A DNA stretch of 52,671 nt from a virus (IMGVR_UViG_3300050821_015011); one strand, 5' to 3'. Shown: positions 6,100-51,406, numbered from the stretch's first letter. Made by a program: numbers and translations. Notes: generated from the letters alone by a model not told the origin.

Positions 6100-6467
6100 G
6101 GGTGTGGTTGGATGATAGCCGTCCACCACCGCCAGGATATGACTTCGTGGCGCGCACAGCGGCAGCCGCGATCAAGATGCTGGCGTCGGGCCTTGTCAAG
6201 GAGATCAGCCTTGATCACGATCTATCTCTGTGTGGCGAGCATTGTATCGAGGATAGCAGCGGCAAGGTGAGATGTGTCCTAGGTAGACCAATGCTCGACT
6301 TCTGCCCATGCCCTTGCCATGACACGGGTTACACCGTGGTCTGCTGGATGGAAGAGAACAAAGTCTGGCCAGCGACAGTACGTATACATACCTCGAATCC
6401 TGTTGGACGATCGAAGATGGAAGCGGCGATCTTGGCATCGGCGCCTCCGGGAACGTACAAGCGATGA
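6096..6467 (+). CDS. hypothetical Cys-rich protein (123 aa)
   Basis: ATGA overlap with the upstream stop. CPCPCH and CGEHC motifs. Confidence 0.4.
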   Translation: MRVWLDDSRPPPPGYDFVARTAAAAIKMLASGLVKEISLDHDLSLCGEHCIEDSSGKVRCVLGRPMLDFCPCPCHDTGYTVVCWMEENKVWPATVRIHTSNPVGRSKMEAAILASAPPGTYKR

Positions 6468-6991
6468 GGTACACAATCACCCCGAAGACGAAGTTCGTGA
6501 AGCCTCGTAAACCGCTTGCCTCGATGAGGGAACGCCCTATGTCGATCAGCTTGAAGAAGGACTGGGTTGCTCGACCAACCATCTTCTATTCGGGATTCAT
6601 GTTCCAACTCGGGGATGTCCTTTCGATCGTGGAGCACAGACAAGACAGAGGTCACTCGTACTACGAGGCCACGCTTCATTATTCCGAAGGCAGGCGCCTC
6701 AAGAATACGAACAGGTCATTCGTCAGCGAGGAAGATGCGCGTGAGTGGTGCATTCTGGAGAGTCTGAAAATGCATGGCTATCAGGCTGAGCGGATCATCA
6801 CGATCAACGGGATGGAGAGGTCGATGCCGCAGAGAACGAAGTTTAGCAAATCGAAAACGAAGAAAGAAACGATGTGCAAGGTTTCGATCGATGCGGGGAA
6901 GACCAAGATCCGCACGCAGATGAGCCAGAAGGATGCTCGCGACTTCATGGAGCTGCTTCGCCAATCGAATAAAACCGATGACCACGTCTGA
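6464..6991 (+). CDS. hypothetical protein (175 aa)
   Basis: ATGA overlap. Motif-1 variant acgtacaag at 6453-6461 just upstream. Confidence 0.45.
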   Translation: MRYTITPKTKFVKPRKPLASMRERPMSISLKKDWVARPTIFYSGFMFQLGDVLSIVEHRQDRGHSYYEATLHYSEGRRLKNTNRSFVSEEDAREWCILESLKMHGYQAERIITINGMERSMPQRTKFSKSKTKKETMCKVSIDAGKTKIRTQMSQKDARDFMELLRQSNKTDDHV

Positions 6992-7340
6992 TTGGTGGTC
7001 GATATTCGACGAGCATCGTGACGTAATCCGTACGCTTGTCGCAAAGTATCACCCAACGTCTGGCAGAAAGCACAACATGCCGATCTCTGCTGCTGGAGCG
7101 GAGGCTGCGTGCGAAGCGGCGCGTAACCGCATCTTGAAGGACTCTACCGTCCCGGGGATCGTAAGGTTCGACGCCGCGGTCCAAAGCCGCAATGTGGAAG
7201 TCCTCATATCACTGTTGAACGATGCGTGGTTTGGCATGCCAGAGTCCATGAGCGTTCGCAGCGAAGCAGGCTTTCATCAGCTCTGCGACCTCTGCGAGGG
7301 CGTAGACGATGCTCCTGTGGAGCAGGTGTTCGATGGATAA
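6978..7340 (+). CDS. hypothetical protein (about 120 aa)
   Basis: Internal ATG of the 6933-7340 frame (MTTSDWW..), 14-nt overlap with the upstream gene. Confidence 0.35.
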   Translation: MTTSDWWSIFDEHRDVIRTLVAKYHPTSGRKHNMPISAAGAEAACEAARNRILKDSTVPGIVRFDAAVQSRNVEVLISLLNDAWFGMPESMSVRSEAGFHQLCDLCEGVDDAPVEQVFDG

Positions 7341-7758
7341 GCATGTGAGAGTCGGTGTTGGTTGCTTCGTCTTTAACCAGAACCAAGAATTTATTATGAT
7401 CAAACGCAAGGGATCCCACGGCGCTGGAACCTGGGCTCTGTTGGGCGGTCATATCGAGTTCGGGCAGACCGTTGCCGAAGCTGCTTTCATGGAGGTAAGG
7501 CAAGAAGCTGGGATTGATATCGAAGCAACCCACGTCCGCTATGGAGGATGGTCAGAAGCGATCTTCCTCGAAGAGGACAAGCATTATATCTCCGTGATCT
7601 GTGCGGCCTATATGCAGCCGCACTGCGAGCCCAAGATCATGGAGCCGGATAAGTGCGAGGAAATTCGTTGGGTGAAGATTGACGGTCCCTATCCCGAGCC
7701 GATGTTTAAGCCTCTCGCGCGCTATTTGCTTTACAACCAGATACCGGTTCCCTGGTAA
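7333..7758 (+). CDS. Nudix hydrolase (MutT-like)
   Basis: Nudix box GGHIEFGQTVAEAAFMEVRQEAGI matches GX5EX7REUXEEXGU. ATGGATAA overlap with the upstream stop. Confidence 0.85.
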   Translation: MDKHVRVGVGCFVFNQNQEFIMIKRKGSHGAGTWALLGGHIEFGQTVAEAAFMEVRQEAGIDIEATHVRYGGWSEAIFLEEDKHYISVICAAYMQPHCEPKIMEPDKCEEIRWVKIDGPYPEPMFKPLARYLLYNQIPVPW

Positions 7759-7774
7759 TCAGCAGCAAATCGCT

Positions 7775-7783
7775 TCGTACAAC
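7775..7783 (+). promoter_or_regulatory. motif-1 TCGTACAAC (extended -10-like / start-associated element)
   Basis: tcgtacaac then gtgtc then the ATG at 7789. Confidence 0.5.
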
Positions 7784-7788
7784 GTGTC

Positions 7789-49453: not shown

Positions 49454-49738
49454 ATGTACATCAAGGTCGTCCGATACGGCGATGATATGCTGAGCGAGCG
49501 CGAATGGACCTTCATGATACTCGCGGAGCACAGCACGTTTATCGTCCGGCTCTGCCAGTATGAAGAACGAAGCCGTCCGAGCAAACGTCACAAGGTCAAG
49601 CTCACGGCGAAATACGATCGCCTGAATATGCGTGATTGTTCGATCAAGAAGCCACCTCCGGTGCCTCCCGATGTGGTGGCTGATGCCCACAGACAGATCC
49701 TTGCTTCCATTGTTTTCGACATCAACAAGGATCTCTGA
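49454..49738 (+). CDS. hypothetical protein (94 aa)
   Basis: TCGTACAAC at 49441-49449, 4 nt before the ATG. Confidence 0.5.
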   Translation: MYIKVVRYGDDMLSEREWTFMILAEHSTFIVRLCQYEERSRPSKRHKVKLTAKYDRLNMRDCSIKKPPPVPPDVVADAHRQILASIVFDINKDL

Positions 49739-49741
49739 ACC

Positions 49742-50506
49742 CTAACTGCGCGGCCGTTTCGGGCAACGATACGAGTGAGAGACCATCATTCCCCTTATGC
49801 TTGACTTGCCCCCGCAGTTATTACAACGAATGAATTTCTGGTCGCAGTAAGGGCAGGCTGCGAGCGCGTATGTTGGTGTTGTTCTAGTCCCGATCGGGGC
49901 CCCGCAACGATCGCACTTTACTGCGGTCATGTTTCTGAGCGTCGTCTTTGGGATCTTCCAGGCCATCGACATCTTTGGGGGTAAATCTGATGTGGTCGTC
50001 TTTGGTGCCGTGCGTTTGTCTTCCAGGTTCCCACGGCTAAGTACCTCTCTCCGAACCCCAGGCGTGATCGCAGCGGCCTCCAGGATCCGCTTACGTGCTT
50101 CACCAAGCAGACGTCGGCAAGAAGCCTCTTTCATTCCGAGTTCGTTGGCGATGTCTTTGTTTTCGAGACCCATTGTCCGCAGCCGACCAGCAACTGTCTG
50201 TTGTGTTGAGAGCACGTGGTAAAGATCAGGACGCAGTACAAGCGGGTCAGCTTCGTATTCGACCACAGCATTTGGGGATGGATCAGTCTCTCCCGCCATG
50301 GTCCGTTCTGCGCGGTTCAGATGAGCCTGGACGCGTGGCACCGGAATGTTGAAGTGCGCGCTAGTATCTCCCAGACTGTTGTTGAGATAATGATCCACGA
50401 TCTTCCACTGGGTGTCCGTGAGCATGCGGATTGACCCTGGATTGTTCGCAAGTAAGCGTTGCAGGCGTTTCTTCCGCGATGCATCGCTCGATAGATCAGA
50501 TTTCAT
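49742..50506 (-). CDS. putative transcription regulator with two sigma-70 region-4/LuxR-type HTH units and a C-terminal zinc ribbon
   Basis: LTDTQWKIVDHYLNNSLGDTSAHFNIPVPRVQAHLNRAER and LSTQQTVAGRLRTMGLENKDIANELGMKEASCRRLLGEARKRI. C-terminal CDRCG..CPYC..CNNCGG..C. Confidence 0.55.
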   Translation of the reverse strand: MKSDLSSDASRKKRLQRLLANNPGSIRMLTDTQWKIVDHYLNNSLGDTSAHFNIPVPRVQAHLNRAERTMAGETDPSPNAVVEYEADPLVLRPDLYHVLSTQQTVAGRLRTMGLENKDIANELGMKEASCRRLLGEARKRILEAAAITPGVRREVLSRGNLEDKRTAPKTTTSDLPPKMSMAWKIPKTTLRNMTAVKCDRCGAPIGTRTTPTYALAACPYCDQKFIRCNNCGGKSSIRGMMVSHSYRCPKRPRS

Positions 50507-51015
50507 TTTGGCAAAGCGTCGGAAGCCAGCTTCTGAAGGCGTGTGATGTACTGAGGCAAGGGCTCGGCTCCATCCCAGGCTGACTGCGAGATCTTGAGTA
50601 GAATCTCTTCCAGCTCGTAGATCCGCACCTTGAACGGGTGCAGATCCTCCTCATTGATGTCGGTGAGCGGAATCGAGATACTTAGGTGCAACTTCCCGTC
50701 GTCGTCGACCACGTCCGCCCGCCCATATTTCTCAGCATGAGCAATCGCGTCGGTCATACCAGCCTTATAGTCGTTGATATTGAATTTCTTCACTGGCGGT
50801 GGTGGACATTTGCAATGCCCGCACGGCTCGCATTTGCCGCATGTCGAACAGTACCTATGCGGTTCTCCCATGGTCTTCCATCCCAGGCAAGCAGGCGAGC
50901 AAAACTGAATCCACTCGCCGGTCGTATTGGTGGTATGGCCTATATGTGTAAAGGCTTTTTTGCAGATCGAGCAGATTTGGATCACTCGATTATGAAGGTG
51001 ATCCATTCCCCACAT
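50503..51015 (-). CDS. Cys-rich zinc-binding protein (170 aa)
   Basis: CSICKK..CSPAC..CSTCGKCEPCGHCKC. ATGA overlap. Confidence 0.45.
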   Translation of the reverse strand: MWGMDHLHNRVIQICSICKKAFTHIGHTTNTTGEWIQFCSPACLGWKTMGEPHRYCSTCGKCEPCGHCKCPPPPVKKFNINDYKAGMTDAIAHAEKYGRADVVDDDGKLHLSISIPLTDINEEDLHPFKVRIYELEEILLKISQSAWDGAEPLPQYITRLQKLASDALPK

Positions 51016-51106
51016 ATATCCTTGAATTCAACAACCTTATGACGACCAACAACATATACTTCGACGACGTAGCTGAAGTGCAGCTCGTACTCGGCAAGGA
51101 TCCTCT

Positions 51107-51331
51107 TCATGGCTTTGTCCTTACCAGCCGCGGAGTCTTGGCGAGCTTGCGTCGCTCTAGCCAAGGTCGAACGAAGAGGTAGAACACCCAGACTCCAGTC
51201 CCGCTATAGACCTGCAATGCGCGTAGAGTCCAGTGGTCGTGCTCGACAGGAAAGTAGAGCGCCCAAATGAACAATGCCATTGCGACCAAGTGCAGCCCAG
51301 TGGTGACCCAGTTCTTTGTTCGTATGTTCAT
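51107..51331 (-). CDS. small membrane protein, two TM helices (74 aa)
   Basis: ORF track, hydrophobic segments. Confidence 0.4.
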   Translation of the reverse strand: MNIRTKNWVTTGLHLVAMALFIWALYFPVEHDHWTLRALQVYSGTGVWVFYLFVRPWLERRKLAKTPRLVRTKP

Positions 51332-51406
51332 GCCCTATCGCTAGCCTGGAACGAGCTAATTGCCTAGTCTATGTAATACAGCCATGCAGCAGCCGTATAA
51401 CTGGCC

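Follow-up and report, generated by a model that had tools for sequence, protein, structure and literature searches.

A viral stretch of 52,671 nucleotides (nt) (IMGVR_UViG_3300050821_015011; the window, here always the whole stretch of DNA that was analyzed) carries 29 copies of a two-block motif, GTAA(T/G) followed after 15 nt by TCGTAYAAC, placed in gene orientation before gene starts. Judged from its sequence and surroundings, this motif probably defines a lineage-specific class of middle or late promoters used by a bacterial RNA polymerase whose -35 specificity would differ from the housekeeping one and is probably directed by the phage. This reading is held with considerable, though not complete, confidence.

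The motif is far too frequent for chance. Across the whole window, TCGTACAAC is found 14 times (13 plus-strand copies and 1 minus-strand copy) against 0.17 expected, CGTAYAAC 25 times against 0.96 expected, and the full bipartite pattern GTAAK-N16-CGTANAAY 27 times against 0.00 expected. A weight matrix derived from the bipartite sites, with the spacer allowed to vary by 1 nt, retrieved 29 sites at a score of at least 17.5, of which 27 are on the plus strand and 2 on the minus strand. No site scored between 12 and 17.5, and because of this gap the sites form a discrete class. Shuffled sequence gave about one match at a score of at least 12. The 29 sites are spread over approximately 45 kb, hold about 26 bits of information, and have further counterparts in the extension sequence past the end of the window.

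An earlier, sequence-only reading of the window had described the downstream block at 28 plus-strand starts and at one minus-strand site. Full sites are present at 27 of these 29 positions. The remaining two, at 6453 and 47750, are exceptions: both read ACGTACAAG, have no GTAAT upstream, and encode Thr-Tyr-Lys in frame near the C-termini of the products of genes 6096-6467 and 47564-47764. These two genes end in GTYKR and GTYKP, each followed by the stop codon, and ACGTACAAG itself is found four times on the plus strand (5992, 6453, 45519, and 47750) where about 0.2 copies are expected. Two sites, one per strand, were absent from the earlier list (12919-12947, plus; 37983-38011, minus), and that reading had overlooked the invariant GTAA(T/G) lying exactly 15 nt upstream, or 16 nt at one site.

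Base counts per position refer to 27 sites, and counts of the relation to genes refer to all 29. In the upstream block G-T-A-A is invariant, and the fifth base is T in 22/27 sites and G in 5/27. The downstream block opens with T (19/27), continues with an invariant C-G-T-A, a pyrimidine (25/27, with G in the other two), and an invariant A-A, and closes with C (24/27); three sites read TAYAAT. The spacer between the blocks measures 15 nt in 28/29 sites and 16 nt in the remaining one, and its 15 positions hold no information content. At 5 to 6 nt past the second block, a conserved C (18/27) is followed by a conserved A (20/27), after which the sequence continues as either TG or GGAG, giving a CATG class and a CAGGAG class.

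The sites retrieved by the weight matrix are listed below with their positions relative to called genes. Transcription starts (+1) and leaderless status are predicted throughout, and TAA refers to the one within the upstream block.

7755-7783 (plus): GTAAT-N15-TCGTACAAC; predicted leaderless, ATG 7789, 5 nt past the motif; TAA is the stop codon of gene 7333-7758
8788-8816 (plus): TCGTAGAAC; Shine-Dalgarno sequence AGGAG at the predicted 5' end, from 8822; ATG 8833 (or 8827); TAA is the stop codon of 8552-8791
9521-9549 (plus): before the HerA/FtsK-like ATPase gene; AGGAGG from 9555; ATG 9563 or 9569
11114-11142 (plus): predicted leader of about 50-60 nt; gene start 11195 or 11207
11847-11875 (plus): ACGTACAAC; predicted leader of about 20 nt with GAGGAG; ATG 11902
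12190-12218 (plus): CCGTATAAC; predicted leaderless, ATG 12224
12919-12947 (plus): within the 3' end of gene 12493-12972; AGGAG at the predicted +1; ATG 12965
14285-14313 (plus): AGGAG at the predicted +1; ATG 14330
15715-15743 (plus): predicted leaderless, ATG 15749
19003-19031 (plus): -35 block GTAAG; ATG 19042, 10 nt past the motif; predicted leader of about 4-5 nt
20918-20946 (plus): TCGTATAAC; predicted leaderless, ATG 20952
21212-21240 (plus): predicted leaderless, ATG 21245, 4 nt past the motif; TAA is the stop codon of gene 20952-21215
24631-24659 (plus): GCGTACAAT; within the 3' end of gene 24403-24684; predicted leaderless, ATG 24665
25668-25696 (plus): GTAAG and GCGTACAAC; predicted leaderless, ATG 25702; TAA is the stop codon of gene 25450-25671
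26362-26390 (plus): 19 nt containing GAGGAGG before ATG 26410; TAA is the stop codon of gene 26036-26365
28110-28138 (plus): ACGTACAAC; predicted leaderless, ATG 28144, in frame with the called start 28177; TAA is the stop codon of 27898-28113
29762-29790 (plus): GTAAG and TCGTACAAT; predicted leaderless, ATG 29796; TAA is the stop codon of gene 29490-29765
30140-30168 (plus): GTAAG and GCGTAGAAC; predicted leaderless, ATG 30175, 6 nt past the motif
30840-30869 (plus): the sole 16-nt spacer; predicted leaderless, ATG 30875
34331-34359 (plus): TCGTATAAT; predicted leaderless, ATG 34366, in frame with the called gene 34309-34686; TAA is the stop codon of 34137-34334
35340-35368 (plus): TCGTATAAC; predicted leaderless, ATG 35374, in frame with the called start 35386
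37098-37126 (minus): AGGAGG at the 5' end of the predicted transcript; hairpin leader of about 160 nt; gene 36656-36916 (minus); TAA is the stop codon of 37123-37503 (minus)
37983-38011 (minus): GTAAG and GCGTATAAC; ATG 37974, 8 nt past the motif
40577-40605 (plus): 28 nt containing GGAGG before GTG 40634; TAA is the stop codon of 40128-40580; strain variant TCGTACAAT
44772-44800 (plus): divergent intergenic region, no co-directional upstream gene; predicted leaderless, ATG 44806
45288-45316 (plus): AGGAGG at the predicted +1; ATG 45333
45940-45968 (plus): the weakest site; GTAAG and TCGTACCAC; predicted leaderless, ATG 45975; TAA is the stop codon of gene 45695-45943
49421-49449 (plus): predicted leaderless, ATG 49454, 4 nt past the motif; TAA is the stop codon of gene 49179-49424
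51373-51401 (plus): CCGTATAAC; divergent intergenic region; predicted leaderless, ATG 51407

Every one of the 29 sites is oriented with the next gene. At 17 of them an ATG follows 4 to 6 nt past the motif (background, 5.5%; P = 1e-14); all 17 ATGs are in frame with the gene called there, and in each case the conserved A is the A of the ATG. This agrees with the leaderless geometry put forward in the sequence-only reading, in which the predicted transcription start falls on the first base of the start codon. At six sites AGGAG(G) begins 5 to 6 nt past the motif, with the start codon 5 to 8 nt further on, and at the remaining six the called start lies 8 to 64 nt from the motif in five and about 180 nt in one (37126, minus strand). 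A class with a Shine-Dalgarno sequence, also described earlier, thus exists, but the motif is not simply displaced about 10 nt upstream as had been thought: the Shine-Dalgarno sequence itself starts at the predicted +1 (C-A-GGAG). A Shine-Dalgarno sequence precedes none of the 17 genes that have ATG at the predicted start, versus 60 of 109 other genes (P = 6e-6). Seven starts called by the source pipelines (28177, 35386, 44818, 21248, 34309, 8833, and 9569) are in frame with the ATG at the predicted +1 and lie 1 to 19 codons off it. It appears that leaderless genes are given wrong starts by gene callers built to look for a Shine-Dalgarno sequence.

The transcript predicted from the minus-strand site 37098-37126 has a peculiarity of its own. 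At 36917-37093 (minus strand) it is predicted to form a single long hairpin, about 160 nt in length, at -82 kcal/mol and z = -5.96 versus shuffles, in which the 5'-terminal AGGAGG is paired with sequence just upstream of gene 36656-36916 (minus). The hairpin has no Rfam match and could represent either a small RNA or a leader with structure.

The upstream block also meets the preceding gene. At 12/29 sites the preceding gene ends, in frame, on the TAA of GTAAT. The genes concerned are 12 of the 17 open reading frames that reach the block (P = 0.002), and at such gene pairs the stop-to-start gap, holding stop codon, promoter, and start codon, is fixed at 30 nt. The stop-codon coincidence and this fixed distance, together with the lack of any terminator signal between genes (terminator and sigma-70 scans are at chance overall in the window), would suit a cassette acting at the RNA level within polycistronic transcripts. 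Such a cassette could be a termination-reinitiation signal, with GUACAA perhaps pairing to UUGUAC of the 16S rRNA, or an RNase processing site that generates 5'-AUG ends. It is nevertheless very improbable. GTAA is invariant also at the 17 sites where the TAA is no upstream stop, and the genes at sites 44772 and 51373, in divergent intergenic regions without a co-directional upstream gene, need a promoter of their own because no upstream co-directional transcript is possible there. Moreover, an RNA signal offers no reason for two blocks with exactly 15 free nt between them, and the spacing of -35, -10, and +1 fits a promoter exactly.

Written as hexamers, GTAATn and TAYAAC lie 17 bp apart in 28/29 sites and 18 bp apart in one, within the 16 to 18 bp of sigma-70-family promoters. 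Numbered from the conserved A as +1, G-T-A-A-(T/G) would occupy -34 to -30 and T-C-G-T-A-Y-A-A-C -14 to -6, followed by a 5-nt discriminator ending in C(-1) before A(+1), the base at which a bacterial RNA polymerase would start; sigma-70-family promoters initiate at a purine 5 to 8 nt past the -10 hexamer, preferably behind a pyrimidine. This bipartite geometry and the orientation toward genes argue for a promoter element, as the sequence-only reading had proposed. Its assignment to the extended -10 type (TGnTATAAT-like) did not hold: T-C-G rather than T-G-n precedes TAYAAC, with G abutting the hexamer, and a strong, invariant -35 block lies 17 bp upstream, features that on the face of the sequence rule out such a promoter. 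By the same kind of comparison the promoter is not of the housekeeping type, since GTAATn matches TTGACA at 2/6 positions, the last -10 base is C in 24/27 sites, and promoters of the TTGACA type are found elsewhere in the element. A sigma-70 promoter scan misses the 29 sites. The dedicated specificity, unlike that of housekeeping promoters, which the sequence-only reading had postulated would follow from the motif as it is now defined.

A motif this uniform could also be read by a sigma-independent RNA polymerase of the element itself, either T7-like and single-subunit or phiKZ/AR9-like and multisubunit, all the more as large phages often encode polymerases. This is the sort of explanation that the geometry makes scarcely credible, because conservation extends as far as -34 and is interrupted by 15 nt of free sequence. 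T7-type promoters form one unbroken block of about 20 bp, from roughly -17 to +6, and the promoters of the phiKZ/AR9 nonvirion polymerases are short single elements. No polymerase gene was found in the visible genome of about 60 kb, comprising the window and 7.8 kb beyond it.

A 94-kb metagenomic contig (ENA ERZ27253726, k141_1782673; 94,087 bp) and fragments from further samples match the window at 99.85 to 99.995% identity. The window runs in reverse on this contig (window position = 95582 minus record position) and is read as part of a large phage or phage-like genome of more than 94 kb. The region contains about 126 mostly small genes, few of them with known domains; among these are the HerA/FtsK-like ATPase, NUDIX, receiver domains, amidohydrolase, and cytidylyltransferase, and several helix-turn-helix and ribbon-helix-helix proteins are encoded as well. 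The 140 proteins of the window and extension matched 37 PHROG families. Scans of the window for tRNAs and against Rfam were empty, the phage collection showed no DNA-level likeness to the window, and the IMG/VR viral-contig collection held no close relatives of the ATPase or of a helix-turn-helix protein.

Contigs reached through ATPase homologs (labeled L128, L129, and so on) show the motif in related elements. L128, which is syntenic, has 57.5% G+C, and encodes an ATPase 61% identical to that of the window, carries six sites of the form GTAAK-N15-NCGTAKAAC, five reading CGTATAAC and one CGTAGAAC. ATG follows at 4 to 6 nt in five of these, and in the remaining one the predicted start coincides with AGGAGG. 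Two orthologous genes, those at sites 9521 and 20918, retain the promoter in the window and in L128 despite unrelated spacers, and the ATPase gene (site 9521) has the Shine-Dalgarno form in the window versus the leaderless form in L128. In L202, which is 97% identical around site 49421, 5 of 19 differences fall in the 15-nt spacer and 0 in the two blocks. Four sites, every one of the CATG class, lie on L203, a fragment of 3 kb that comes from the same series of samples. L129 (ATPase 50% identical; 50% G+C) lacks CGTAYAAC; immediately upstream of six called gene starts it carries instead a shifted version, GTAAG-N15-TCGTACTAT, with a -10 that reads TACTAT. The motif is absent from the more distant relatives L220, L221, and L222. 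Two full sites occur within 20 kb of L165/L195, a 109-kb IMG/VR contig with replication genes and no detected protein similarity to the window. From the site patterns in L128, L202, L203, L129, L220 to L222, and L165, sequence comparison indicates that the motif is under purifying selection as two separate blocks, is restricted to a lineage, and co-varies between lineages.

Near-consensus promoter signals of the housekeeping type are gathered in one short divergent region, as follows.

4982-5164 (plus): TTGTCA-16-TATAAT
4982-5164 (minus): TTGTCA-16-AATAAT and TAGACA-17-TACTAT

The core elements of these promoters are conserved in L128, and the host sigma factor probably uses them for early transcription. 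The sites of the bipartite motif start downstream of this region, at 7755, and the first genes of the minus-strand clusters are without the motif. Such a layout is the one expected for early genes served by the host polymerase versus later genes served by a redirected polymerase, and the presence of a separate housekeeping-type block at 4982-5164 is the reason for which the motif is assigned to a middle or late class; the timing is deduced from this arrangement. One of the minus-strand elements, TAGACA-17-TACTAT, is followed after 7 nt by an ATG, which predicts a leaderless mRNA for gene 4583-4981 (minus), and has the core ACGTAC in common with the bipartite motif.

A second motif, (A)GCTRGACAAT, is present in the window in seven exact copies against 0.18 expected, among them the following.

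17894-17903 (plus): (A)GCTRGACAAT
24373-24382 (plus): (A)GCTRGACAAT
25413-25422 (plus): (A)GCTRGACAAT
27129-27138 (plus): (A)GCTRGACAAT
34099-34108 (plus): (A)GCTRGACAAT
22523-22532 (minus): (A)GCTRGACAAT

Five copies lie 25 to 40 nt upstream of the starts of genes that have no bipartite site, and copies with one mismatch occur in relatives (L121 extension, L165, L213, and L203). With its -35-like core TRGACA, this motif may be a second promoter class or an operator.

Several observations weigh against a phage-directed specificity. Searches with Pfam, PHROGs, and NCBIfam of the window, the 7.8 kb beyond it, and the loci of the relatives gave no sigma factor, RNA polymerase, or MotA/AsiA-like gene. 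Among the top 25 families listed by PHROGs and NCBIfam for the 140 proteins of window and extension none is sigma-like, although a weak sigma match could lie below that cut. Nothing sigma-like appeared either among ten candidate early proteins by Pfam at E values up to 1, in the relatives L165, L213, and L193 by Pfam, or on reading of sequences by eye. TAYAAC is close to a housekeeping -10, with three sites reading TAYAAT, TACTAT in L129, and the ACGTAC core before 4583-4981 (minus), so that the host primary sigma factor could read the -10 part. Finally, the two full sites in L165, which has no detected protein similarity to the window, leave room for a factor encoded by the host.

The one candidate named in the sequence-only reading, the 254-amino-acid product of 49742-50506, has a partial match to sigma region 4 at residues 112-141, followed by zinc ribbons, and no region 2. 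It has no relative among 5.8 billion proteins and no match to solved structures. This half-match was rejected as the promoter factor, as it lacks both region 2 and relatives while the promoter is conserved in relatives, and a conserved promoter needs a conserved reader.

If the host primary sigma factor reads the -10 (cgTAYAAy), a DNA-binding protein of the element seated on GTAAT would have to replace the -35 contact, in the manner of T4 MotA/AsiA or of a class II activator. The TATAAT-like hexamer with its variants in the window and in L129 fits this arrangement, as do the ACGTAC core within TAGACA-17-TACTAT before 4583-4981 (minus), conserved in L128, and the helix-turn-helix and ribbon-helix-helix proteins encoded in a sequence that yielded no sigma gene. 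The final hexamer base speaks against it, being C and not T in 24/27 sites; T at this last -10 position is nearly invariant in primary-sigma promoters, as is established for sigma-70 region 2. No MotA- or AsiA-like protein was detected in the searches above, and the sole window protein resembling sigma region 4 is without relatives. On balance this arrangement appears unlikely, though it deserves to be kept in mind.

Alternatively, the element may exploit an alternative sigma factor of its host, of the extracytoplasmic function (ECF) or FliA type, and encode no specificity factor itself. The consensus sequences of sigma-28/FliA (TAAA-N15-GCCGATAA), PvdS (TAAAT-N16-CGT), and SigW (TGAAAC-N16-CGTA) have in common with the motif a short A-rich -35, a rigid spacer of 15 to 16 nt, and a -10 containing CG. 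ECF promoters have a -35 block with AAC, a spacer of about 16 to 17 nt, and a -10 block with CGT. In the motif CGT is invariant and lies 16 nt from GTAAT, but the -35 block has no AAC and the -10 block is 8 to 9 nt long and ends in AAC; no ECF sigma gene was found in the searches above. Of the sigma-28 consensus, the 15-nt spacer and the TAA of TAAA are present, and the match to GCCGATAA is 4/8 bases. The likeness is a lead on the type of sigma factor and not a family membership. The two full sites in the apparently unrelated L165/L195 and the lack of a sigma gene in about 60 kb would fit a host factor too. However, uniformity of about 26 bits and a density of 29 sites in 45 kb are typical of phage-specific promoters, and the consensus co-varies between related elements (AAC versus TAT and GTAAT versus GTAAG). 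When 185,579 species genomes were scanned for an 18-base form of the motif, 35 single matches appeared, with no genome holding several; most of these lie away from gene starts and none precedes a sigma gene. We regard use of a host alternative sigma factor as quite improbable.

The species-genome scan pointed to no host, and scans of whole collections with a 14-base pattern returned more than 120 single matches, all compatible with chance. A literature search on the motif string retrieved primers only, and searches on phage promoters or sigma factors combined with leaderless mRNAs or upstream motifs retrieved nothing matching.

The reading of the motif as a phage-directed promoter class would work as follows. 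Specificity would come from a factor peculiar to the lineage: an alternative sigma factor, or else a protein standing in for sigma region 4. Its gene most likely belongs to the element and lies beyond the approximately 60 kb that are visible. At 17 sites the mRNA would have no leader, and its translation would depend on the 5'-terminal AUG; at 6 sites AGGAG(G) would be the 5' end of the mRNA, with the Shine-Dalgarno sequence at the very terminus; the rest would have short or long leaders. The promoters would occupy the tiny gaps between small genes, as a 30-nt stop-to-start cassette at 12 sites. Leaderless genes would be poorly translated from read-through transcripts, which would explain why each of them has a promoter of its own, and the same constraint would explain why genes without the motif mostly bear a Shine-Dalgarno sequence or are coupled to the preceding gene.

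Taken further, these features may point to a large-phage lineage with its own promoter-recognition system, a sigma factor too divergent for present profiles or a substitute for region 4, that co-evolves with the 30-nt stop-promoter-start cassette; we offer this as a genuine but tentative possibility. If it is true, nearly every small gene would be an autonomous leaderless unit served by an orthogonal sigma-promoter pair. An information-rich promoter that shifts in step between relatives implies that a matching specificity factor should exist, and that it should be findable by searching for co-varying genes. Promoter-factor pairs of this kind are useful as orthogonal expression parts. For a piece of a large, uncultivated phage with almost no gene of known function, the sites also supply a precise predicted map of transcription: 29 transcription starts, 17 leaderless genes whose start codons are corrected, and a split between early and later promoters.

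Other features of the element and its relatives stand apart from the promoter. Gene 18-2558 (minus) encodes a full-length major vault protein homolog of 846 amino acids with Vault_3 and MVP shoulder domains, with about 53% identity to proteins from Myxococcota genomes and 40% to genes of two uncultured phages of 735 kb (LR756501) and 462 kb (LR756500). Viral major vault proteins in gut phages have been reported in a preprint (bioRxiv 10.1101/2023.11.10.566534). LR756501 and LR756500 are AT-rich, have only the vault protein in common with the window, and do not contain the motif. A conserved module of small genes (103 amino acids, 153 amino acids, and a 73-amino-acid biotin/lipoyl-like protein) is found at 22272-24253 (minus) and in L129 at 8852-9935, where it lies directly upstream of the ATPase gene; its 153-amino-acid protein is 61% identical between the window and L129, above the identity of the ATPase. 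A 253-amino-acid gene within the 22272-24253 module has relatives in Bacillus and Xanthomonas myophages. At 467-907, 11305-11958, and 14120-15029, L129 also contains long hexanucleotide arrays (ACGGAT, AGACGG, and similar; 20 to 37 copies per array) located within small genes, as well as 2 to 3 copies of a 328-bp repeat. L222 contains about seven copies of an 18-bp palindrome, GAAAACTCnnGAGTTTTC (e.g., at 1368, 3453, 12917, 16177, and 19399), and TTGGTATATAC is overrepresented there, which suggests that this lineage uses a different regulatory vocabulary.

Among known systems, the promoters of phage phiEco32 have the consensus tAATGTAtA, a related version is found in phage 7-11, and the consensus shifts between relatives (PMC4331800). 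The motif described here resembles those of phiEco32 gp36/7-11 and of SPO1 gp28 and gp33/34 in being a highly uniform signal, over-represented before middle and late genes (here presumed to be such), set apart from early housekeeping promoters and shifting between relatives. Whereas the phiEco32/7-11 promoters are a single -10-like element, the present ones are bipartite with a strict 15-nt spacer, have another consensus, and are predicted to be mostly leaderless. In phiEco32 and SPO1 the sigma gene is the phage's own; none was found here in the approximately 60 kb searched. Further phage-specific promoter classes are those of SPO1, T4, and T7. T4 middle promoters combine a MotA box at -30 with a sigma-70 -10, the sigma factor being appropriated by AsiA and MotA, and are alike in pairing a housekeeping-like -10 with a phage-specific box in place of the -35. 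They differ in the sequence and position of the box, here fixed at -34 to -30, in the last base of the hexamer, here C, and in their MotA and AsiA proteins, of which no homologs were detected here.

Phage transcripts are said to be often leaderless (PMC5312081). In the leaderless units of actinobacteria and Deinococcus-Thermus, of lambda cI transcribed from PRM, and of Thermus phages, as predicted here, the -10 element places +1 at the AUG and there is no Shine-Dalgarno sequence. Here, in contrast, the predicted leaderless starts all go with a single, strictly bipartite motif and stand beside a predicted class with a 5'-terminal Shine-Dalgarno sequence. Transcripts of the Thermus phages P23-45 and phiYS40 are reportedly largely leaderless. 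The start-associated sequences of Cluster K mycobacteriophages, single 13-bp blocks that resemble ribosome-binding sites and are thought to act in translation, likewise lie a few bases (3 to 8 bp) upstream of many starts. The likeness to such actinophage sequences drawn in the sequence-only reading proves superficial, as the present motif is bipartite with promoter geometry, has no GGAG-like core or Shine-Dalgarno sequence within it, and includes a leaderless class without one. The hyperplastic regions of T4-type phages, with their promoter-early stem-loop elements, also hold many small genes of unknown function, each with its own standard promoter; unlike there, no stem-loop accompanies the promoter, which is not of the host early type. 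Phage-specific promoter classes and leaderless phage transcripts are thus already known, and no new kind of mechanism is proposed. What is new is the consensus, the lineage, the postulated reader, and the tight packing, with the stop codon in the -35 block and the start codon or Shine-Dalgarno sequence at +1. It is an unusually clean case of promoter, stop, and start packed together, and it includes mRNAs predicted to begin with AGGAG.

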